A DNA stretch of 64,000 bases, from NCBI RefSeq assembly GCF_030684315.1, contig NC_081354.1, forward strand, positions 72,367,222 to 72,431,221, given 5' to 3'. Shown here in pieces: positions 1,349-44,461 of this stretch; the first letter of the stretch is position 1; each line of letters starts with the position of its first letter. This stretch comes from Stegostoma tigrinum. Taxonomy: Eukaryota. Under the pieces are notes generated by a model that made no database searches, was not told where the DNA came from, and worked only from the letters and a program-made list of their open reading frames with translations. Made by a program: the position numbers and the translations under genes.

Positions 1349-3906
1349 CCGAGATAACAAAGTGTAGAGCTGGATGAACACAGCAGGCCAAGCAGCATCT
1401 TAGGAGCAGGAAAGCTGATGTTTTGGGCCTAGACCCTTCAGCAGAAATGGAGGAGGGGAAGAGGGTTCTGAAATAAATAGGGAGAGAGGGAGAGGCGGAT
1501 CGAAGATGGATAGAGGAGAAGATAGGTGGAGAGGAGACAGATAAGTTAAACAGGCAGGGATGGAACCAGTAAAGGTGAGTGTAGGTGGCGAGGTGGGGAG
1601 GAGGTAGGTCAGCCCAGGGAGGATGGACAAGTCAACGGGGTGGGATGAGGTTAGGAGGTAGGAAATGGGGATGGGGCTTGAGGTGGTAGGAAGTGATAGG
1701 TGAGAGGAAGAACAGGTTAGGGAGGTGGGGACAGGCTGGGCTGGTTTTGGGATGCGGTAGGCGGAGGGGAGATTTTGAAGCTAGTGAAATCCACATTGAT
1801 ACCATTGGGCTGCAGGGTTCCCAAGTAGAATATGAGTTGCAGTTCCTGCAACCTTTGGGTGGCATCGATGTGGCACTGCAGGAAGCCCAGGATGGACATG
1901 TCATCCGAGGAATGGGAGGGGGATTTGAAATGGCTCACAACTGGGAGGTGCAGTTCTTTATTGCGAACCGAGCGTAGGTGATCTGCAAAGTGGTCCCCAA
2001 GCCTCTGCTTGGTTTCCCTGATGTAGAGGAGGCCACAAGGGGTACAGCGGATGCAGTATACCACATTAGCGGATATGCAGGTGAACATCTGCTTGATGTG
2101 GAAAGTCTTTTTGGGGCCTGGGATGGGGCTGAGTTAGGAGGTGTGTGGGCAGATGTAGGACTTCCTGCGGTTGTAGGGAAAAGTGCTGGGTGTGGTGGGG
2201 CTGGAGCGGAGTGTGAAGCAGCCAAGGGAGTCACGGAGAGAGTGGTCCCTCCAGAAGACAGACAAAGGGTGGGGAGGGAAAAATGTCTTTGGCGGTGGTG
2301 TTCGATTGCAGATGGCGGAAGTGTCAGAGGATGATGCGTTGGATCTGGAGGTTGGTGGGGTGGTATGTGAGGAAGAGGAGGATTTTTTTTTAGTTGTTAT
2401 TGCTGGATTGGGGTGTGAGGGATGAGTTGCGGGAAATGCCGGAGACACAGTCGAGGGTGTTCTCGACCACTGTTGTTTGGGGGGTGGGGGGGGGTGCGCG
2501 GGAACGTTGCGGTCTTTGAAAAACGAGGTACAGGAGTGGAATGGCTCATCCTGGGAGCAGATGCGGCGGAGGCAAATGAATTGGGAATCAGGGATGGCAT
2601 TTTTGCAGGAAGGTGCGTGTATACACCTCCTCCCACCCACCTTCCTGCAAAAATGCCATTCCCTATTCCCAATTCCTTCGCCTCCGCCACAGCTGCTCCT
2701 AGTATGAGGTATTCCACTCCCGTACATCACGGATGTCCTTGTTTTTCAAGGACCGCAAACACCACCCCCCCCCGACAGTGGTCGAGAACGCCCTCGACCG
2801 TGTCTGCCTCATGTCCCGCAACTCATCCCTCACACCACGTTCCCGAAATAACAACCAAAAAAAAACCCTCCTCTTCCTCACTTACCACCCCGCCAATCTC
2901 GGGATCCGACGCATCATCCTCCAGATCTTTCGCCATCTGCAATCCGACCCCACCACCAAAGACATTTTTCTCTCCCCGCCCTTGTCTGTTTTCTGGAGGG
3001 ACCACTCTCTCCGTGACGCCCTTGGCTGCTTCACACTCCGCTCCAGCCCCACCACACCCAGCACTTTTCCCTGCAACCGCAGGAAGTGCTACACATCCTC
3101 ACCCCCATCCCAGGCCCCAAGAAGACTTTCCACATCAAACAGATATTGACCTGCACATCTGCTAATGTGGCATACTGCATCCACTGTACCCATTGTGGCC
3201 TCCTGTACATCAGGGAAACCAAGCAGAGGCTTGGTGACCACTTTGCAGAACACCTACGCTCGGTTCGCAATAAACAACTGCACCTCCCAGTCGCGAACCA
3301 TTTCAACTATCCCTCCCATTCCTTAGGTGACATATCTATTCTGGGCCTCCTGCAGTCCCACAACGATGCCACCCGAAAGTTGCAGGATCAGCAACTCATA
3401 TTTCGCGTTGATACCATTGGGCTGCAGGGTTCCCATGTGGATTTCACAAGCTTCAAAATCTCCCCTCCGTCTACCGTATCCCAAAACCAGCCCACGTCAT
3501 TCTCACACTTATTCTTCCTCTCACCTATCCCCTCCTCCCACCTCAAGCTGCACCCCCATTTCCTACCTACTAACCTCATCCCGCCCCCCCCCCCTTCCAT
3601 CCTCCCTGAACTGACCTACCTCCTCCCTAACTCCCCAGCTACACTCACCTTTACTGGCTCCATCCACGCCTCTTTAACTTGTCTGTCTCCTTTCCACCTA
3701 TCTTCTCTATCCATCTTCGATCCACTTGCCCCTCTCTCCCTATTTATTTCAGGACCCTCTTCCCCTCCCCCATTTCTGATGAAGGGTCTACGCCCAAAAC
3801 GTAAGCTTTCCTGCTCCTAAGATGCTGCTTGGCCTGCTGTGTTCATCCAGCGCCACACCTTGTTATCTCGGATTGTCCAGCATCTGCAGTTCCTATTATC
3901 TCTGAT
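1349..3906. mobile_element. PLE insertion 1: ~2.55 kb palindrome of two 5'-truncated arms, tails outward (left arm - strand 1349-~2615, right arm + strand ~2621-3906), degenerate
   Basis: Both arms encode frameshifted RT C-terminus and GIY-YIG (NVVYCIRCTPCGLLYIRETKQRLGDHFADH; ORFs 1717-2088 -, 3086-3820 +). Junction palindrome gtgtatacac 2617-2626. Imperfect TSD ac(a)7tta 1335-1346 vs ac(a)9tta 3907-3920. Confidence 0.95.
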
Positions 3907-6216
3907 ACAAAAAAAAATTAGCCTGCAGTTTACAGACCTGTGCTCACTACTCACCAATATAGACTATGAAAATTGGCCCAAAGAAACAAAGTAAATGAAG
4001 GAAATTCAGAATAGAAGATGAGAGATCAACTGGAAGATTGGTCATAACATTGACAATCAAAGCAGTACCCTGTCTTGCTCTTGTATTCTCACAACTCCCC
4101 TCGTCACAACATGTATTTAAATGATTAACCCAGTTACTGAAATTATCAAATGTATACTCTATCTACATTAAGGTTCAGAATAAAAATTACAATAACCAAT
4201 AACTTTCACCAGCAGTAACATTATTAATAGTGCCTGTTTCCATGCTGTATAACAGTATGACTCTGTTATAGAATCACAAAGATATAAAGCTGATAAGTGC
4301 ACAGTTTGAAATATTAACATAGAAATGTTTACCCTTCCAAATAACTTGATGCACGCACACTCTAACCAGCTAAAGGAAAATTAAAGAAACTTTCACTACA
4401 GAAATAAACTTTGTGGGAAATAAAACACTTTGGACAAATACTTGTTATTAAAAGGAAAAATATGAATTTTTAAAAAAATTTCTTTCAGTCTGACACCCTT
4501 GTACACGTGGATAGATTGCGAGGTATGAACAGTTGCCTTTGGAATCTCTTCAGATGCACTTCATTCAGGAAATGTCAAGATGAAGTCTTTTAGAACCTTA
4601 CCAGTTCAAATAATTGCTTCAGCTATAGAATCCAGACAGCCATAAACTCAAATTTTTAAATTTAAGCAGTTATTTTGAGTCACATAACTTCAAATAAGTA
4701 TTTATTGAGAAACAGTATCCCACAATGTCCTTTTAAGTGAACTTTAAATCAAGGACCAGGAGTCTTCCCCGGTATTTCACATGAACAAATTTTTGCAATG
4801 CTTTAGACATGAGTTCTCAAAAATATTAATAGTTGAAGTGACTCTAGAACAATGCTCAAAGGAGAAAGAACTAAAATGAAGGAAAAGAATAAAAAGCTGA
4901 AGTCATGAATGGGATGTTTTGCAATTTACTTATGGTAAACTATTAGCCTGGGGGATAAGCAGCTAAAAGATTTTGTATGGGTCTAAAATCAGCTTGGAAC
5001 TACTGGATTGGAGAATCTCATTTAAAATGATCAAGAACAACTATTAGTTTGGCAATCCTTAGGCCCTCCCTCGTTGCTTATGTAATTTTAACATGCTTGT
5101 AGGTGTGCCTACATTTTCCTTACCACATTTTTGGTTCTTGAGCCTGTTGAATACTAAACTACCTAATTGAGTGTTACACAGCGTATGAAAAGCTCCAGTC
5201 CAATGTGAAATTGAATTTGAAAGAGTTTCTTGCTGTTTATTGAATAGCTTTCAGACATTTTAAAAAAAACCTTATTATTCGGAACAGTTGAAATTAAGTT
5301 TGAGTTCTATTCTAATATAAACTTGCAAACTTGCATAATCAGTCAGTCAGCAGAACTTTGCATATATATGTTTGCAGTATTGTTCCACCATGTTAGTGCA
5401 CTGCATGATATAGAAAAAATGTCCATACTACAACGCTCCTTTTAAGTCACAGTATTATGCATATATTTTCCATTGTGTAGTCAGGGATGTATTATCTTCA
5501 GTTACTGCAGCACTTATAATCCTCTCAGTGAATTAGACTTAAAAATAGTTTTAATAAGGCAAGTGATTCTGGGTATTGGCTCCCTACTGTCAAACATATA
5601 GTCCCAGGTTTCCTCCAGTTCTTTGGAGCAGAGGGACAATGCATTCTGACGTCCACCTTTGGACAACATACAGTTCCACTGTATCATGAGGGCATTGATG
5701 ACTGCAGGCTCCACTGCTGGAGGTTGATACTGGTCCTGTATTTCTATACCCATGTGTTCCTCATTCTTCATGCAGTGGCTCTCAGTCCAGCAGACATAGA
5801 GGTGATCACAGCTTCTGCACCTATATCCGCTGGGGACAGTTCCAATTAGCTTACATGGGCAAAATCAGTAGAATTATCATTCGGCAGCCACAGCACACAG
5901 AAGTAATACTTGTGCCGCATCCACCAAACATTAGGACCTAGAGGCCGTCCACAAGAAGGCCCTGGGATGCTTCTACAGAATAATGCACATCCTCATCCTG
6001 GTCCAGATCCAGGTGTCTGTTTCTTAAGCCTTTTTGTGCACATTCGGTTCCAGATTGTATGTGTGGCAGCAATAATAAGGAACTCACCTTCATCCCCCCT
6101 TTCCCACAGTATGAAGAAACTTAGCATTACATACAGGATAATTATGTGCATGTTTTGTGGTCCAGGGTGTGAAGTAAACAGATTCTGCATCTTATGTAGG
6201 ATATGGGAGCTTAGAT

Positions 6217-7240: not shown

Positions 7241-7499
7241 TCAAAACGTATATGCCGTGATGATGTGGTGAGGCTGGTATTTGTCCGATGCCAAATTCTT
7301 TGGACTAGGCAGATGCTGTCCATTGAGTGTAACCTGATATTACAGACTTCTATTCAAAATGGAGGCCTGGATGAGCAAGCAGCAAGCAAAAATCACTTTT
7401 ACTTTAATATCAGCAATTGCTGTTGTCTAATTAAAGATAATAAAATGTGAGGCTGGATGAACACAGCAGGCCAAGCAGCATCTCAGGAGCACAAAAGCT

Positions 7500-7527
7500 G
7501 ACGTTTCGGGCCTAGATCCTTCATCAG
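7500..7527 (-). ncRNA. Minimal HHR motif, core intact, one stem II mismatch
   Basis: RC CUGAUGAAGGAUCUAGGCCCGAAACGUC. Confidence 0.8.
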
Positions 7528-9543
7528 AGAGGGGGATGGGGTGAGGGTTCTGGAATAAATAGGGAGAGAGGGGGAGGCGGACCGAAGATGGAGAGAAAAG
7601 AAGATAGGTGGAGAGGACAGTATAGGTGGGGAGGTAGGGAGGGGATAGGTCAGTCCAGGGAAGACAGACAGGTCAAGGAGGTGGGAAGAGGTTAGTAGAT
7701 AGGAGATGGAGGTGCGGCTTGGGGTGGGAGGAAGGGATGGGTGAGAGGAAGAACAGGTTAGGGAGGCAGAGACAGGTTGGACTGGTTTGGGATGCAGTGG
7801 GTGGAGGGGAAGAGCTGGGCTGGTTGTGTGGTGCAGTGGGGGAAGGGGAGATTTTGAAGCTGGTGAAGTCCACATTGATACCATTGGGTTGCAGGGTTCC
7901 CAAGCGGAATATGAGTTGCTGTTCCTGCAACCTTCGGGTGGCATCATTGTGGCACTGCAGGAGGCCCATGATAGACATGTCATCTAAAGAATGGGAAGGG
8001 GAGTGGAAATGGTTTGCGACTGGGAGGTACTGTTGTTTATTGTGAACCGAGCGGAGGTGTTCTGCAAAGCGGTCCCCAAGCCTCCGCTTGGTTTCCCCAA
8101 TGTAGAGGAAGCCACACCGGGTACAGTGGATGCAGTATACCACATTGGCAGATGTGCAGGTGAACCTCTGCTTAATGTGGAATGTCATCTTGGGGCCTGG
8201 GATAGGGGTGAGGGAGGAGGCGTGGGGGCAAGTGTAGCATTTCCTGCGGTTGCAGGGGAAGGTGCCAGGTGTGGTGGGGTTGGAGGGCAGTGTGGAGCGA
8301 ACAAGGGAGTCACAGAGAGAGTGGTCTCTCCGGAAAGCAGACAGGGGTGGGGATGGAAAAATGTCTTGGGTGGTGGGGTCGGATCGTAGATGGCGGAAGT
8401 GTTGGAGGATGATGCGTTGTATCCGGAGATTGGTAGGGTGGTGTGTGAGAACGAGGGGGATCCTCTTTGGGCGGTTGTGGCGGGGGCGGGGTGTGAGGGA
8501 TGTGTTGCGGGAAATGCAGGAGACGCGGTCAAGGGCGTTCTCGACCACTGTGGGGGGAAAGTGGCTGTCCTAGAAGAACTTGGACATCTGGGATGTGTGG
8601 GAGTGGAATGCCTCATCGTGGGAGCAGATGCGGCAGAGGCGGAGGAATTGGGAATAGGGGATGGAATTTTTGCAGGAGGGTGGGTGGGAGGAGGTGTATT
8701 CTAGGTAGCTGTGGGAGTTGGTGGGCTTGAAATGGACATCAGTTACAAGCTCTTTGCCTGAGATGGAGACTGAGAGATCCAGGAAGGTGAGGGATGTGCT
8801 GGAAATGGCCCAGGTGAACTGAAGGTTGGGGTGGAAGGTGTTGGTGAAGTGGATGAACTGTTCGATCTCCTCTGGGGAGGAAGAGGTGGCGCCGATACAG
8901 TCATCAATGTAACGGAGGAAGAGGTGGGGTTTGGGGCCTGTGTAGGTGCGGAAGAGGGACTGTTCCACGTAACCTACAAAGAGGTAGGCATAGCTGGGGC
9001 CCATGCGGGTACCCATGGCCACCCCCTTAGTCTGTAGGAAGTGGGAGGAATCGAAAGAGAAGTTGTTGAGGGTGAGGACGAGTTTGGCCAGGCGGATGAG
9101 AGTGTCGGTGGAGGGGGACTGGTCAGGCCTGCGGGACAGGAAGAAGTGGAGGGCCTTGAGGCCATCGGCATGCGGAATGCAGGTGTATAGGGACTGGACG
9201 TCCATGGTGAAAATGACGTGTTGGGGGCCCCCACTGCACCACACAACCAGCCCAGCACTTCCCCTCCACCCACTGCATCCCAAAACCAGTCCAACCTGTC
9301 TCTGCCTCCCTAACCTGTTCTTCCTCTCACCCATCCCTTCCTCCCACCCCAAGCCGCACCTCCATCTCCTACCTACTAACCTCATCCCACCTCCTTGACC
9401 TGTCCGTCTTCCCTGGACTGACCTATCCCCTCCCTACCTCCCCACCTATACTCTCCTCTCCACCTATCTTCTTTTCTCTCCATCTTCGGTCCGCCTCCCC
9501 CTCTCTCCCTATTTATTCCAGAACCCTCACCCCATCCCCCTCT

Positions 9544-9571
9544 CTGATGAAGGGTCTAGGCCCGAAAAGTC
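9544..9571 (+). ncRNA. HHR motif with stem III palindrome broken (GAAAAGUC)
   Basis: ctgatgaagggtctaggcccgaaaagtc; C>A at 9568 relative to the other copies. Confidence 0.7.
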
Positions 9572-10179
9572 AGCTTTTGTGCTCCTGAGATGCTGCTTGG
9601 CCTGCTGTGTTCATCCAGCCTCACATTTTATTATCTTGGATTCTCCAGCATCTGCAGTTCCCATTATCGCTGTTGTCTAATTTCTATCCAGCCTGTCAGA
9701 GAATAGGAAAATGTGTATCAATGAGGATAAGTTATTTACTCGTGTCGAGCAAATTGGTGCAAATAAGCCTGTTCCCATTCACTAGTAAGACTCCTATTGC
9801 ACAGTTGAAAATCTGTTGCAGAATTAAACTTAATTTTCTTCAGATGTTCAGAATCTGATTTCTTCTGATCTCATGTATCCTGAACTCTCTTGCCATTGCC
9901 CATGTCATTTTTGGTCTGGAAGATTCTGCCCCTCATTTTCATATAACATGATATTATGTATTTTGTTTTACCAGGGTTACATCATTATACATGACTAAAT
10001 ATATAATGTAATGTATCTGTGTTTGTGCTTGATTTTAGCCTCATTTGAGGTTTCATGCAATTGTTGAGCCAATTGAATAAAACTAAATCCTTTACAGAAT
10101 CTATGTAAGAATAGAAACAACAAGTAAGTTGTTCAAAGTCAAAGCAGCATGTGTTGGAAATACTCCATAAGACAATGAT

Positions 10180-27740: not shown

Positions 27741-30406
27741 TGGGCCCATGGCCAACGCCAACGTCACTCCGCTCACTGCCTCCACAGCCAGCAGCTCCAG
27801 AGGAGACAGCAGCACCCAGCCGTGCCGAGCATTCACCATCCGCCAAGACCTCCCCCTTACTGAGGACGAACGGTCGATCGTCAGTGAAGAGCTCATCTCT
27901 GTCCCTTCCACCCAGACGTCAGTGAATGCCTGTCACATTTGGACATGGATCAGTTTTTCCGCTGCCTCCGCCTCTGCACTTACTACTTTAATTGTGAGCC
28001 AAACCCTCCCTCTACTGATCCCTTCTCCTGCCTCCAACGCACGCCCTCCTCTTGGACAACACCCCAAGGCCTCCAACCCTCTCTCGACCTCTTCAAGTCC
28101 AACTGCCGTCATGACATCAATCGCCTCAACCTCTGCACTGCCCTCACCCACTCCAACTTCTCCCACGCAGAATGTGCAGCCCTCCGCTCCAATCCCAACC
28201 TCACCATAAAACCCATGGACAAGGAAGGCGCAGTTGTAATCTGGCGTACTGACCTCTGCATCGCCAAGGCCGGATGCCAACTCTCTGACACCTCCTCCTA
28301 CCAACCCCTTGATCACAGCACCACCCTCGAACACCAAACCGTCATCTCCGAAACCATCCACAACCTCAGCACTACAGGTAACCTCCCACCCACAGCCTCC
28401 AACCTCATTGTTCCTCAACCCTGCACCTCCTGCTTCTACCTCCTTCCCAAAATCTGCAAACCTGACTGCCCTGGTAGACCCATTGTCTCCGCCTGCTCCT
28501 GCCCCGCCGAACTTATCTCCACCTATCTGGACTCCATTTTCTCCCCCTTGGTCCAGGAACTCCCTACCTATGTCTGTGACACCACCCATGCCCTCCACCT
28601 CCTCCAGAGCTTCCGGTCCTCCAACACCTCATCTTTACCATGGACGTCCGGCCCCTATACACCAGCATTCTCCACACAGATGGCCTAAAGGCCTGCCGCT
28701 TCTTCCTGACCCGCAGACCTGACCAGTCCCCCTCCTCTGACACCCTCATCTGCCTAGCAGAACTCATCCTCACCCTCAACAACTTCTCTTTTAATTCGTC
28801 CCATTTCCTACAGACACAGGGGGTGGCCATGGGTACCCGCACGGGCCCAAGCTATGCCTGCCTCTAGGTAGGCTACGTGGAACAATCCCTGTTCCGCACC
28901 TACACTGGCCCTAAACCCCACCTCTTCCTTGGTTACACTGATGACTGCATCGGTGCCACCTCGTGCTCCCATGAGGACCTCGAACAGTTCATCCACTTCA
29001 CCAACACCTTCCACCCCAACCTTAAGTTCACCTGGACCATCTCTAATACCTCCCTCTCCTTCCTGGACCTCTCTGTCTCCATCTCCAGCAATCACCTAGA
29101 AACCGAGAGCCATTTCAAGCCCAAGGACTCCCACAGCTACCTACAGTATACCTCCTCCCACCCACCTTCCTGCAAAAATGCTATTCCCAATTCCTTTGCC
29201 TCCACCGCATCTGCTCCCAGGATGAGGCATTACACTCCTGTACATCTCAGATGTCTTTGTTTTTCCAGGACCACAACTTCACCCCCTCAGTGATCGAGAA
29301 TGCCCTCGGCCGTGTCTCCGCACTTCCCGCAACTCATCCCTCACACCATGCCCCCACAATAAAGACCAACACAGAATCCCCCTTGTTCTCACATACCACC
29401 CCACCAACCTCTGGATCCAACGCATCATCTTCCAACACTTCTGCCATCTGCAATCCGACCCCACCACCAAAGACAATTTTCCCTCCCCACTCTTATCTGC
29501 ATTCCGGAGGGACCACTCACTCTGGGATTCCCTTGTCCGCTCCACACTCCCCTCCAGCCCTAGAAAGCCCGACACTTTTCCCTGCAACTGCAGGAAGTGC
29601 TACACCTGCCCCTACACCTCCCCCCTCACCCCAATTCCAGGTCCCAAAAAGACCTTCCACATCAAGCAGATGTTCACCTGCACATCTGCTAATGTTGTAT
29701 ACTGCATCCGCTGTTCCCATTGTGGCCTCCTCTACATGGGGGAACCTAAGCAGAGGCTTGGGGACTGCTTTGCAGAACACCTATGCTCAGTTCGTGCTAA
29801 ACAACTGCACCTCCCAGTCGCGAACCATTTCACTTCTCTCTCCCATTGTGCAGACGACATGTCCATCCAAGGCCTCCTACACTGCGACAATGATGCTACC
29901 CGAAGGTTGCAGGAACAGCAACTTATATTCCGCTTGGGAACCCTGCAGCCGAATGATATCAATGTGGACTTCACAAGCTTCCAATTCTCTCCTCCCCCTA
30001 CTGCATCCCAAAACCAGCCCAGCTCGTCCCTGCTTCCCTAACCTGTCTGTCCTCCCACCTATCCCCTCCTCTCACCTCAAGCCCCACCCCCATCTCTTAC
30101 CTACTAGCCTCATCCCGCCCCCTTGACCTGTCCGTCCTCCCTGGACTGACCTATCTCCTCCCTACCTCCCCACCTACATTCACCTTTACTGGCTCTATCC
30201 CCGCCTCTTTGACCGGTCTATGTCCTCTCCACCTATCTTCTCCTCTATCCATCTGCTATCCGCCTCCCCCTCTCTCCCTTTTTATTTCAGATCCCCCTTC
30301 CGCTCCCCCATTTCTGAAGAAGGGTCTTGGCCTGATATGTCAGCCTTCCTGCTCCTTTGATGCTGCTTGACCTGCTGTGTTCATCCAGCTCTGCACCTTG
30401 TTATCT
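27741..30406 (+). mobile_element. PLE insertion 3: longest copy (N-terminal region, RT, GIY-YIG, 3' end), multiply frameshifted, single arm
   Basis: ORF pieces 27939-28688 (IKPMDKEGAVV, FYLLPKICKPDCPGRPIVS), 28640-28867, 28877-29293 (YTDD), 29670-30041 (VVYCIRC..LYMGE). Perfect 15-bp TSD ctaatgaaattgcag at 27726-27740 and 30407-30421. Confidence 0.96.
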
Positions 30407-35600: not shown

Positions 35601-35792
35601 TCACATATATTCAAAGCTGAAACAAATTTAAATGTGAGATTGAGGTATGAGATCTGTAGAATGGATAGTAAATGCCTGATTAAAATGTATCAGAGATAAT
35701 GGGAACTGCAGATGCTGGAGAATTCCAAGATAATAAAATGTGAGGCTGGATGAACACAGCAGGCCAAGCAGCATCTCAGGAGCACAAAAGCT

Positions 35793-35820
35793 GACGTTTC
35801 GGGCCTAGACCCTTCATCAG
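35793..35820 (-). ncRNA. Minimal type I hammerhead ribozyme motif, intact
   Basis: Reverse complement CUGAUGA-A-GGGUCUAGGCCC-GAAACGUC: conserved core boxes, stem II GGGU/GCCC, stem III reduced to palindromic ACGU as described for PLE minimal HHRs. Confidence 0.85.
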
Positions 35821-36044
35821 AGAGGGAGATGGGGAGAGGGAACTAGAATAAATAGGGAGAGAGGGGGAGGCGGACCGAAGATGGAGAGAAAAGAAGATAG
35901 GTGGAGAGAGTATAGGTGGGGAGGTAGGGAGGGGATAGGTCAGTCCAGGGAAGACGGACAGGTCAAGGAGGTGGGATGAGGTTAGTAGGTAGATGGGGGT
36001 GTGGCTTGGGGTGGGAGGAAGGGATGGGTGAGAGGAAGAACCGG

Positions 36045-37663
36045 TTAGGGAGGCAGAGACAGGTTGGACTGGTTTTGGGATGCAGTGGGTGGGGGGGAAG
36101 AGCTGGGCTGGTTGTGTGGTGCAGTGGGGGGAGGCGATGAACTGGGCTGGTTTAGGGATGCAGTTGGGGAAGGGGAGATTTTGAAACTGGTGAAGTCCAC
36201 ATTGATACCATTAGGCTGCAGGGTTCCCAGGCGGAATATGAGTTGCTGTTCCTGCAACCTTCGGGTGGCATCATTGTGGCACTGCAGGAAACCCATGACG
36301 GACACGTCATCTGGAGAATGGGAGGGGGAGTGGAAATGGTTTGCGACTGGGAGGTGCAGTTGTTTGTTGCGAACTGAGCGGAGGTGTTCTGCAAAGCGGT
36401 CTCCAAGCCTCCGCTTGGTTTCCCCAATGTAGAGGAAGCCACACCGGGTACAGTGGATGCAGTATACCACATTGGCAGATGTGCAGGTGAACCTCTGCTT
36501 AATGTGGAAAGTCTTCTTGGGGCCTGGGATAGGGGTGAGGGAGGAGGTGTGGGGGCAAGTGTAGCATTTCCTGCGGTTGCAGGGGAAGGTGCCGGGTGTG
36601 GTGGGGTTGGAGGGCAGTGTGGAGTGAACAAGGCAGTCACGGAGAGAGTGGTCTCTCTGGAAAGCAGACAGGGGTGGGGATGGAAAAATGTCTTGGGTGG
36701 TGGGGTCGGATTGTAAATGGCGAAAGTGTCGGAGGATGATGCGTTGTATCCGGAGGTTGGTAGGGTGGTGTGTGAGAACGAGGGGGATCCTCTTTGGGCG
36801 GTTGTGGCGGGGGCGGGGTGTGAGGGATGTGTTGCGGGAAATGCAGGAGACGCGGTCAAGGGCATTCTCGACCACTGTGGGGGGAAAGTTGCGGTCCTTG
36901 AAGAACTTGGACATCTGGGATGTGTGGGAGTGGAATGTCTTATCGTGGGAGCAGATGCGGCGGAGGCGGAGGAATTGGGAATAGGGGATGGAATTTTTGC
37001 AGGAGGGTGGGTGGGAGGAGGTGTATTCTAGGTAGCTGTGGGAGTCGGTGGGCTTGAAATGGACATCAGTTACAAGCTGGTTGCCTGAGATGGAGACTGA
37101 GAGGTCCAGGAAGGTGAGGGATGTGCTGGAGATGGCCCAGGTGAACTGAAGGTTGGGGTGGAAGGTGTTGGTGAAGTGGATGAACTGTTCGAGCTCCTCT
37201 GGGGAGCAAGAGGCGGCGCCGATACAGTCATCAATGTACCGGAGGAAGAGGTGGGGTTTGGGGCCTGTGTAGGTGCGGAAGAGGGACTGTTCCACGTAAC
37301 CTGCAAAGAGGCAGGCATAGCTGGGGCCCATGCGGGTGCCCATGGCCACCCCCTTAGTCTGTAGGAAGTGGGAGGAGTCAAAATAGAAGTTGTTGAGGGT
37401 GAGGACGAGTTCAGCTAGGCGGATGAGAGTGTCGGTGGAGGGGGACTGGTCGGGCCTGCGGGACAGGAAGAAGCAGAGGGCCTTGAGGCCATCTGCATGC
37501 GGAATGCAGGTGTATAGGGACTGGACGTCCATGGTGAAGATGAGGTGTTGGGGGCCAGGGAATTGGAAGTCCTGGAGGAGGTGGAGGGCGTGGGTGGTGT
37601 CACGGACGTAGGTGGGGAGTTCCTGGACCAAAGGGGAGAAAATGGAGTCCAGATAGGTGGAGA
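36045..37663 (-). pseudogene. 5'-truncated but open PLE ORF: RT core, thumb, Cys-rich linker, GIY-YIG endonuclease (Neptune-type architecture)
   Basis: TMDVQSLYTCIP, QTKGVAMGTRMGPSYACLF, FLRYIDD, LTFLDLSV, FKPTDSHSYLEYTSSHP, linker CNRRKCYTC, NVVYCIHCTRCGFLYIGETKRRLGDRFAEH..ANHF. Lacks the N-terminal RT motifs present in insertion 3. A Cys-rich RT-EN linker is typical of Neptune-group PLEs. Confidence 0.93.
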
Positions 37664-38065
37664 CCAATGGGGAGAAAATGGAGTCCAGATAGGTGGAGAA
37701 CCAAAGGGGAGAAAATGGAGTCCAGATAGGTGGAGACCAAAGGGGAGAAAATGGAGTCCAGATAGGTGGAGAACCAAAGGGGAGAAAATGGAGTCCAGAT
37801 AGGTGGAGAACCAAAGGGGAGAAAATGGAGTCCAGATAGGTGGAGACCAATGGGGAGAAAATGGAGTCCAGATAGGTGGAGAACCAAAGGGGAGAAAATG
37901 GAGTCCAGATAGGTGGAGACTAAAGGGGAGAAAATGGAGTCCAGATAGGTGGAGAACCAAAGGGGAGAAAATGGAGTCCAGATAGGTGGAGAACCAAAGG
38001 GGAGAAAATGGAGTCCAGATAGGTGGAGACCAAAGGGGAGAAAATGGAGTCCAGATAGGTGGAGA
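37628..38065. repeat. Tandem array, 12 units of 36/37 bp (ccaaaggggagaaaatggagtccagataggtggaga[a]) derived from PLE RT coding sequence STYLDSIFSPLV
   Basis: Units counted directly: lengths 36,37,36,37,37,36,37,36,37,37,36,36. The same sequence is single-copy in insertion 3 (~28516-28552). Confidence 0.97.
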
Positions 38066-41000
38066 TAGGTTCATCCTGATTAAAATGTTTCAGCTTTAAG
38101 TAAAACCAGGCATTTGCTGCCCATTCTACAAACCTCGCACCTCAAATTTGACAATTAATGCACAGAGCATAGTTTTCTCTCCCTGGAAGTGGAGAGAGAA
38201 TTGGTGACAAGGAGAAAGTAACTAGAATTTACTGGCAATTTTTTTTTCATCAGCAGCAAGACATCAGTTGAAAACTAAACTAAATGGGAATGGAAAGCCT
38301 ATTTTTCCAAGCTATTGGTGTAACTTTGGTGGAAGCATCTCTTTTTTTGGTTTCTGAGATATGAACATTGCTGGATAGGCCAACATTTTTCATCCCCCTA
38401 ATTGCCCTTAAGGTGTGTTAACAATTGAGTGCTTTGCAATAAAATGCTATTTCAGAGATTAGCTAAGAGTCAACCTTCATGCTGTAACACTGGAGTTGCA
38501 TGTAAACTCAGAGCAGGTAAAGCTGGCAGAGTTCTTTGTGAATCAATGAACTTTTATGACAATTCAGTAACTTCATTGCCACCATTACTGACATTTGTTG
38601 TTGATTCTGGAATTAATAAAGTAACCAAATTCAAACTTGATGATGAAACTTGGCTTGGTTTGTTTTACTTTGTTCCTTTCTTTTGTGTAAAGCAAAACCA
38701 CATCTGCAGCCAGGTATGCTTATGCTCTAGCAAAAAAAAACTACTATGTTAAGTAAAACAAACACAATATGGTCACTCAAGCCAGATTTCATTCTGGGAT
38801 CTGATTTGTCCATCAGCTGAGGTCATAACAAAGGTAGCCCCTCGACATCACTAAACTTACATTGACCCGCTAATATCCTGCACTTTAATTCTGTCCTGTG
38901 TATCCCTAATATTTGCTGATCTACCATTGCCAACTGTATATTCAGCTGCATAGGCCATACATATCGGAATTCCCTACTTAAGATCTCTTCATCTGCCTTT
39001 TAACTATTCCTTTAATCCCAACTCTTTATCAATGTTGGGCACTGCCCCTCGCTTCCTTTTGTCTCGTGGTGTCAAATTTTGTTTGAAAGCAGTTCTAGGA
39101 ACTGCCTTGGGTTCTTTACTGTGTTAAAGGCATTGTGTAGAGCAAAATTATTGGTGTTATGGGCGAAATGTTGCAAAAGAAGTCTTATCTGCTGAGAATC
39201 TAGCACATTTTTCAAAGAGGCAGCACAAATATGATGGGCTGAATGGTCAATTTCTAGGATGTATGATTCTATAATTAGTTTTACTCTTCAGATAAGATCT
39301 GGTTAGCAGTATTGACGTATATTATCTGTGGATAGGTTTTGCACAAGTTTGAATCGTTGATAAATCATCAACCATTTGTGCACTAAACCTGTGTCTTGAG
39401 GACAGAACTAACCTCAAGCCCATAATGATAGACTGTCTCTTACAATAGTTTCCTCGTTCTTCGATGTCTGTTTATTTTTGGATTCTTGATGAAAGCTTTT
39501 ATTTACCCGTGTTGAAATTGTGGAAGAAAGACATCAGATTTCACTGGGATCAAGAAGGTTGAAGGCTTGGGTTATTTTCATTGGAAGTTTGGATAGCTTC
39601 CATCACTACTTCTCGGTTGATCTTGACTGCATGACACATGAGTTTGCATTGTCTCCCATTAAACCCTGTGACTAATTTTAATATAAAATGTGAGACACTG
39701 ACAGCAAATTGGTGCTCAATTTACATTCCACCTGGTCTGAATTTTTGCTGACTGTAATGGAAAGTAAAATTGAGTAAGATGTAAAATGGGGGCTGTTCAA
39801 AATCCGCTAGATTTTCTATCAAGTAGGTTAGGCTATAAGTATTCTCCATCATTCTGTCTTGCTTTACCAGTTCCCTATGTTTGACTTCAAGATACTTGCC
39901 ATTGTAGTCAAAACCCTCACTTCAAATAATATAAGCAGTTTCCTATAGCAGAACATACTTGCAGCAGCCTTTTCTCTTCAGATATAAAACTGCTTATTTT
40001 CTGTTGATTCCTTCTGTACTATTGGAGAGCAATCCTTCAGATGTGAAATGCCTGAATTCTCTTTTAGTTAACATCACTTTGACATCTCCTATTAGGCCTC
40101 CTGAAAAAGATTTGTTCCCTTTGACTGAGTCTTCAATTTCCATGTAGCCTCACTCCACACTTTTATTCTACTCCCATCTGGCATCCTCTATTCTGCATGT
40201 TTTTCTTAATAAATCATTTTTTATGAGGAGGGCTATTGAAATGCATGTTTTTTTTTTGGTGGGGGCACCCTTCAATGATGTCCGAATAATTGTACCTTGG
40301 TTGAGGTAATCTGTGCAATGATTAATGTACCAGCTTTGTTCTTTCAGTTTCCATGTTGCTGTTGCTCCTAGCATTAACCATTGCATCCAAGCTGTGTGCT
40401 AGAATGTGGTTTTCAGTTCACGATATGGAATGAAGCAATACTTTCTTGTTAATATTCATGCCACACCTCCACTCTCAGTCAAACATCATGCCTTTACAAG
40501 GTTTTTACAGCAACCAACTGTTTAGATTGAGAGCCAATTCCAGATTAAAAACAATGGCTCTTCACTCACATTACCAGTCTTCCCCACCTTTTTATTTCAC
40601 AAATGGAGGGAGGTCCACATTCCTAAGAGTAGATTCTGACTAGGGCTTCTTCAGAAATGAGGAGCTGACATTCCATTCTGACAGTGCTTTCTCAGTGCAG
40701 AATTGTCAAGGGAAGGCAGATCATTCCCCTTTTCACAGCTGGCAGTCACCATTTTCTGAAATTTAGAAAGGTCTGGCTGCTGTAAGAGAAGTGTGAGATT
40801 AGGGTGCTAGGAAGGTAGAATAGCAGTTGGTTAGGGTGTCACGTCGGTTAGGTGTTAGCTAGATGGGATGTCAGCCCTCAGGGTAAAGTTACAAATAAGT
40901 AGGATGCCAAGATTCCAGCGAGGTTGTCAGGTGTGATGGTACCAGTGTACTGGGGGTTTTGAGATGGGTAGTGCATAGAGTGAGTAGTATGTCAGAATGG

Positions 41001-44235: not shown

Positions 44236-44461
44236 ATAATTGGAACTGCAGATGCTGGAGAATCCAAGATAATAAAATGTGAGGCTGGATGAACACAGCA
44301 GGCCCAGCAGCATCTCAGGAGCACAAAAGCTGACGTTTCGGGCCCAGACCCTTCATCAGAGAGCTCTGTGATGAAGGGTCTAGGCCCGAAATGTCAGCTT
44401 TTGTGCTCCTGAGATGCTGCTGGGCCTGCTGTGTTCATCCAGCTTCACAGTTTATTATCTT
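44236..44461. mobile_element. PLE-derived non-coding mini-hairpin (226 bp) with two back-to-back HHR motifs
   Basis: Near-perfect palindrome centred on agagctct (44360-44367), arms equal the 3' end of insertions 2/4. 13-bp TSD aaaaatctgagtg at 44223-44235 and 44462-44474. Confidence 0.95.
44332..44359 (-). ncRNA. Minimal HHR motif, intact
   Basis: RC CUGAUGAAGGGUCUGGGCCCGAAACGUC. Confidence 0.85.

Follow-up and report, generated by a model that had tools for sequence, protein, structure and literature searches.

A 5'-truncated Penelope-like element lies on the minus strand within the 64,000-nucleotide window, that is, the whole stretch of DNA analysed, to which all positions refer (Table 1). 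Its one open reading frame encodes a reverse transcriptase (RT) and then a C-terminal GIY-YIG endonuclease, both Pfam matches being weak and below the curated cut-offs, and by this domain order the element would be of Poseidon type. At the 5' break of the element we noticed a tandem array, and a perfect target-site duplication (TSD) of 14 bp encloses the element and the array together. The family has native VNTRs of 27/21 nt and 39 nt; a native 12-nt repeat is also present in it. The TSD, the 5' truncation and the tail, with inverted 5' arms elsewhere in the family, correspond to the layout of EN+ Penelope-like elements, including a 30-40-nt tail, as given in the available text of PMC8557442 and PMC11167929.

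Table 1. Features of the element, the array and the flanking duplication (positions in the window).
Feature	Position	Strand	Remarks
TSD, 14 bp, copy at the element's 3' end	35675..35688	.	Identical 14-mer at 35675 and 38075
Tail extension, ~35 nt	35689..35723	-	TSD starts 35 nt past the common 3' end
5'-truncated Penelope-like body	35724..37663	-	97% identity to a young relative (L133)
GIY-YIG endonuclease domain	36237..36470	-	Match to Pfam PF01541 (E 3e-4), slightly below the curated cut-off
Reverse transcriptase core	37170..37550	-	Match to Pfam PF00078 (E 2e-4), below the curated cut-off
Unit 1	37628..37663	-	36-nt coding segment in colinear position; final stretch of the element proper
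Units 2-6	37664..37846	-	183-bp higher-order block, copy one; T variant at 37668
Units 7-11	37847..38029	-	183-bp block, copy two; T variant at 37851 and private C>T at 37921
Unit 12	38030..38065	-	Outermost full unit; its last 23 nt inside the X15/X17 contigs
Filler, 9 nt	38066..38074	-	One parental base, a likely 10-nt back-slip, 2-4 further bases; contig-supported
TSD, copy at the element's 5' break	38075..38088	.	Identical 14-mer; contig support

Counted in the assembly, the array holds 12 tandem units (37628-38065, with unit starts from 37628 to 38030); the read contigs reach 38043-38800 only. Successive units measure 36, 37, 36, 37, 37, 36, 37, 36, 37, 37 and 36 nt, followed by the twelfth unit ending at 38065, and an extra A is present at 6 of the 11 joints. 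Units 2 and 7 have a T variant in common, unit 9 carries a private C>T, and TRF detected a period of 183 at 99%. Contigs from runs X15 and X17 (one contig each, from one sample, possibly the assembly's own source) matched 38043-38800 without any difference, spanning the join between filler and TSD. An earlier note on this DNA had described 12 copies of one coding segment inside the TSD at the 5' truncation point, with about half of the joints carrying one extra A, and both statements are borne out in the assembly. Its suggestion that the outermost few nucleotides are parental-like did not hold: TGAGTT follows the unit in 107 of 119 relatives, and TAAG or TAGG is present there in none of them. 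One more back-slip of 10 nt within the unit, with a 4-nt overlap, would account for the last 9 nt at least as well.

Stutter at 5' breaks across the family

Genome scans for back-jumps of period 24-39 nt at six further windows of the element gave 0, 1, 12, 7, 14 and 5 matches per window, together 34 distinct loci. One locus (L134), the sole match of its window, is a chance match to non-element sequence. At the 33 element loci the back-jump was found at the 5' break in 31 and internally in two (L171 and L172); 18 of the 31 break loci adjoin an inverted arm and 13 adjoin flank. The share expected at the break is 12-19% at the upstream windows, calculated from copies that span such a segment and terminate no more than 60 nt from it. 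At one scanned window, with 50,243 colinear matches, all 13 back-jumps lay at the break, against an expected 0.034 (1 of 30 copies). With 30 of 39 matches on it, the forward strand was favoured by the scans, and the counts may therefore be lower bounds. We also analysed 119 copies unselected for repeats, 19 of which were dropped because the 5' end was out of reach or within a native VNTR. A tandem of at least 18 nt was present at 4 of the resulting 100 junctions versus none of 704 internal windows. Among 30 further loci, L182 carries an element-derived repeat and L191 a target-derived one. Repeats of other kinds in the loci analysed are mostly ~80% alike.

Most scan matches have two units only. 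Among the longer arrays is L080, with four units of 37/38 nt and a further two of smaller size, drawn from a window 260-300 nt inside the element. Its joints differ by one A, and joints also differ within single arrays at L143, L159 and L168. Differing joints inside one array at these four loci support the proposal of repeated realign-and-extend cycles. That the array was born by retrotransposition is likewise supported, by the position of 31 of 33 back-jump loci at 5' breaks and by 4/100 junctions versus 0/704 internal windows. Tandem arrays are strongly enriched at 5' truncation points (31/33 versus 3-19% expected), and the same counts rule out arrays as randomly placed internal VNTRs. The array in the window is an extreme case of a stutter found at junctions across the Penelope-like family, and this stutter is real and recurrent, probably a functionless scar. 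Inspection of the joint list by eye gave no sign of a piRNA-like origin of the repeated windows (A at position 10).

Joints, enzyme and template strand

From 39 listed joints we set aside 10 with apparent extra letters, which mostly reflect divergence from the reference, four same-locus repeats and one internal joint, leaving 24 distinct stutter joints. These overlap by 0 nt in 10 cases, by 1 nt in 12 and by at least 2 nt in two, where chance predicts 56%, 29% and 15%, respectively. Restart on 0-1 paired bases, as in R2-type jumping, was found at 22 of the 24 joints, and microhomology of at least 2 nt, as expected of polymerase theta, was not in excess (2/24 versus 15% by chance); the excess of 1-nt overlaps is weak (12/24 versus 29%, p = 0.04). 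At the flank joins of simple copies, overlaps of at least 2 nt occur in 6 of 10 (Fisher p = 0.003 against the stutter joints), these joins coming from 11 of 24 non-inverted loci with a credible TSD, one of them with a filler, and two of the values from BLAST ends. The array's own 36-nt joint overlaps by 2 nt and its final slip by 4 nt. The stutter joints are unlike the final attachment in appearance and fit RT jumps on a non-templated overhang. Jumps of this kind, in which non-templated overhangs pair with a template end, are described for the R2 RT in the available text of PMC8857657, whose authors question whether jumping is required in vivo.

R2-type jumping is preceded by non-templated addition of mostly A. 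An added A would suit the antisense strand at the array but the sense strand in L080 and L137, and the single extra bases at stutter joints comprise G, A, T and C. While the extra A noted previously is present, a non-templated origin is not required for it, as the 37-nt unit can also be read as a fully templated blunt joint. Pairing of a single template base with the A that ends the growing antisense strand, whether or not one A is added, would yield both joint types.

In its working the array resembles end-to-end template jumping by an RT, or a templated insertion at a break, and differs from telomerase with its dedicated template; it shows no sign of function. In the reading we prefer, to which we give about an even chance, it is an insertion scar: the element's RT would have stalled at the 5' break and jumped back ~36 nt some six times, and an ordinary DNA duplication of a five-unit block would later have extended the array to 12 units. 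We infer several cycles in one reaction, the RT as the enzyme and the later block duplication alike. At L147 and L164, the element's 3' start sites recur as short antisense copies between the TSD and the stutter, and at L151 each arm is adjoined by repeats of its own polarity, an order in which one set would need a sense (RNA) template. These fillers and the L151 order favour an RT acting on RNA. Target DNA is re-copied at the L191 and L146 junctions; according to the accessible part of PMC2718515, R1 elements copy 16-27 nt of target a second time at the 5' join when they insert, and therefore target copies do not exclude an RT. A lizard Penelope-like enzyme is described as cutting and extending both strands in vitro (PMC11167929, available text). 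Besides the 2-nt and 4-nt overlaps at the array, it counts against RT jumping that a 36-bp duplex must open for the back-jump, for which the sequence offers no explanation. That Penelope-like RTs possess an intrinsic repeat-addition mode, re-copying, at a stalled end, the same 25-40 nt of their RNA many times per reaction, is a possibility that we hold tentatively and rather doubt.

Polymerase theta, an end-joining polymerase of the host, is a strong rival candidate, although we lean against it. A target 3' end would prime on the single-stranded end of the cDNA, extend ~36 nt, come off and re-prime repeatedly, the block duplication coming after. Iterated copies are indeed drawn from both sides of the break, from the element at many loci and from the target at L191 and L146, where the target-derived re-copies are a hallmark of host templated insertion, and windows are patchworked and displaced in L080, L158 and L086. 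This polymerase makes its insertions in iterated rounds that start from minimal pairing (PMC12426944), and at LINE 5' ends the extra nucleotides derive from the LINE or its flank and differ with the host cell (PMC4760211, PMC4245944), all as far as the available texts go. Overlaps of at least 2 nt are nevertheless at chance level in the stutter joints (2/24) as opposed to the family's flank joins (6/10), MMEJ being given as 2-6 bp in the available text of PMC4760211. Moreover, the insertions of this polymerase are said to be mostly <25 bp, a comparison in which the present scans cover 24-39 nt only, and the L151 order and the L147 and L164 fillers point to an RNA template.

Growth to 12 units and the question of a template

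Joint types recur along the array with a period of 5, a perfect period of 2-5 being found in 1.6% of shuffles, and the shared T lies exactly five units apart (units 2 and 7). Both observations uphold the earlier suggestion that part of the growth was a later duplication of a 183-bp block. Counting units by hand at 31 junctions gave a continuation rate of ~0.28; at this rate, with 2,000-5,000 stuttered junctions assumed, 12 straight cycles are expected 0.006-0.014 times genome-wide and 7 units 3-8 times. The array has two mutation events versus 2.3 expected from the body (7 private non-CpG changes at 1,334 sites), a load compatible with birth of the array at insertion in a weak test that fits 7 or 12 original units equally. 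Probably ~7 units were made during insertion and a later 183-bp block duplication made 12. With RT jumping as the preferred reading, the history would comprise about six jumps and a final short slip, one substitution, the five-unit duplication and one more substitution.

It is unlikely that one back-jump took place at insertion and that later slippage or unequal crossing over made the other units and the 37-nt variant. The period-5 block with its shared variant proves DNA-level duplication at the array, the extra base lengthens a single A to two, and two units are all that most scan matches have. The joint pattern could be reached by one jump, one 1-nt indel and five duplications, which counts against repeated RT jumping, yet the need for five duplications plus an indel is itself a cost. 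Furthermore, internal tandems are rare in the family (0/704 windows), the joints of L143, L159 and L168 differ at both ends, and the mutation load, a weak test, fits an array as old as the insertion.

Inflation of the unit number or the joint pattern by sequencing or assembly is very unlikely. No run's contig pieces cross the internal joints; however, the outer junction is present in contigs of two runs, the array occupies just 440 bp within a 194-Mb contig, the period-5 regularity and the shared variant are unlike random error, and there are many similar arrays elsewhere in the genome.

The unit's 33-mer matches 7,101 places genome-wide, and the unit is reiterated at one of the about 7,100 places that carry it. 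A search for its back-jump pattern with periods 28-37 gave 11 matches in the 3.2-Gb genome, all at the array locus, indicating that the array is not due to chance. A parent element that already carried the array is ruled out, there being no second locus in the genome. The RNA fold around the parental window was no better than shuffles (z = 0.3), and this result and the single repeated locus rule out a hot-spot window or RNA structure. At the unit joints we found nothing beyond the 2-nt overlap that could serve as an alignment region, and no structured template boundary as in telomerase or DRT2; where those reuse a fixed template in every event, other insertions of this family repeat other windows. 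The telomerase-like template put forward in the earlier note is contradicted by the varying windows, the one repeated place in about 7,100 and the fold; the element has no programmed, telomerase-like template. We therefore give hardly any credence either to such a template in the element RNA, despite the most recent ancestor shared by Penelope-like and telomerase RTs (PMC8557442, available text), or to a random internal VNTR unrelated to insertion, which the native VNTRs might suggest and the 31 of 33 matches at the break oppose.

Significance and comparison with known systems

The joining of retroelement 5' ends is unsettled, and for Penelope-like elements the later insertion steps are stated to be unvalidated (PMC11167929, available text). 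In this family of >50,000 matches, repeated restarts have left a legible trace at a few percent of the junctions, and such traces let RT-driven and host-driven models be tested by counting; the junction scar is of mechanistic value. Should the RT prove to be the agent, telomerase RT's closest relative can add repeats without a dedicated template, and under either enzyme an insertion can seed a minisatellite in one step. If true, a repeat-addition mode would foreshadow telomerase processivity in an unprogrammed form, with thousands of junctions in the genome as its record, and would provide a direct route from retrotransposition to new minisatellites. No earlier description of multi-unit arrays at Penelope 5' breaks was found in a search outside which subscription papers mostly, and supplements entirely, fell; a preprint on L1 rearrangement (10.1101/2024.12.14.628481) and PMC13580325, in their available parts, have no bearing on Penelope 5' arrays.

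In having an RT with a C-terminal GIY-YIG domain, 5' truncation, inverted arms, a 30-40-nt tail and a TSD, the insertions resemble published EN+ Penelope-like insertions, for which short stuttered arrays at the 5' break are unmentioned in the available text of PMC8557442, PMC3846280 and PMC11167929. The zebrafish LINE ZfL2 also acquires extra bases at the 5' join that are templated by element or flank and made during joining (PMC4760211, PMC4245944). The ZfL2 extras are several nucleotides long, and multi-unit tandem arrays are not described in the accessible parts of those papers, whereas in the Penelope-like element a unit of 25-39 nt recurs as many as ~7 times, with joints overlapping by 0-1 nt. 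Insertions by polymerase theta share iterated cycles of extension and release, patchwork fillers and use of both break sides, but are usually <25 bp and arise at plain breaks (PMC12426944, available text); the stutter joints, unlike them, have no excess of overlaps of at least 2 nt, and a sense template would be required for some of the fillers.

Template jumping by the R2 RT is similar in its restart on minimal pairing, and may be so in its run-off and non-templated addition (PMC8857657, PMC2718515), but was demonstrated in vitro between separate templates, and repeated return to one short window in vivo is not described in the available text. Telomerase and the bacterial DRT2 system likewise make tandem copies of one segment by repeated realignment, a likeness of outcome only; their template is fixed and structured and includes an alignment region, and their repeat synthesis has a function (PMC12039810, available text), whereas in the stutter described here the repeated segment is set by the break point of each insertion.

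Stutters at displaced and recurrent positions

Stutters, the back-jump tandem repeats at the 5' breaks of insertions, were also found to copy stretches remote from the break. At the junction of L080, another locus of the same Penelope-like family, the array consists of four 37/38-nt units and two shorter ones, and its source lies 260-300 nt from the truncation point. Displaced windows are likewise repeated in L158 and L151. L151 is a head-to-head insertion that carries a separate stutter on each arm, an antisense 27-nt repeat in four copies on one and a sense repeat of 17 nt on the other; the order of these repeats bears on which strand served as template.

Independent stutter loci share restart and stop points: in one scanned segment of the element 4 of 6 hits begin at the identical position, in another 6 of 13 end at the identical position. 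This recurrence suggests a sequence preference in where stutters restart and stop. The break of the window copy is matched to within 2 nt by four of 119 relatives (L007, L053, L081 and L130), a coincidence of position that may perhaps reflect a mild truncation hot spot.

Junctions and the insertion site

Between target site duplication (TSD) and element, the junctions of L147 and L164 contain tiny antisense pieces of 8-19 nt that copy the 3' start sites of the element and are present twice over in L147. These pieces were likely left when priming began at the second target end and was aborted. L191 and L146 each show one re-copy of the target-site sequence itself at the 5' join. The window's element inserted into an old inverted repeat whose arms, which match imperfectly, now lie on either side of it; hence, judged from its sequence, the empty target site could have folded into a hairpin, the TSD lying at the loop.

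Family copies and native VNTRs

Four further family copies lie in the window; three of them are head-to-head pairs, and the remaining one is long and older. The family also carries native VNTRs, of which the 27/21-nt one is GC-rich and lies inside the ORF region.

Coordinates of features in the window and at related loci
Feature	Position	Remarks
Further family copy	1354-3866	
Further family copy	7437-9640	
Further family copy	27744-30389	
Further family copy	44263-44458	
Inverted-repeat arms	35640-35681 and 38104-38145	42 nt, 81% complementary
39-nt native VNTR	36065-36173	~3 copies, near ORF end
27/21-nt native VNTR	~800-860 nt upstream of the 36-37-nt unit	2-6 copies; L011, L015, L017, L019, L023 and others
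L080	G000:C1:12883340-12890339	
L151	G000:C6:31248591-31251616
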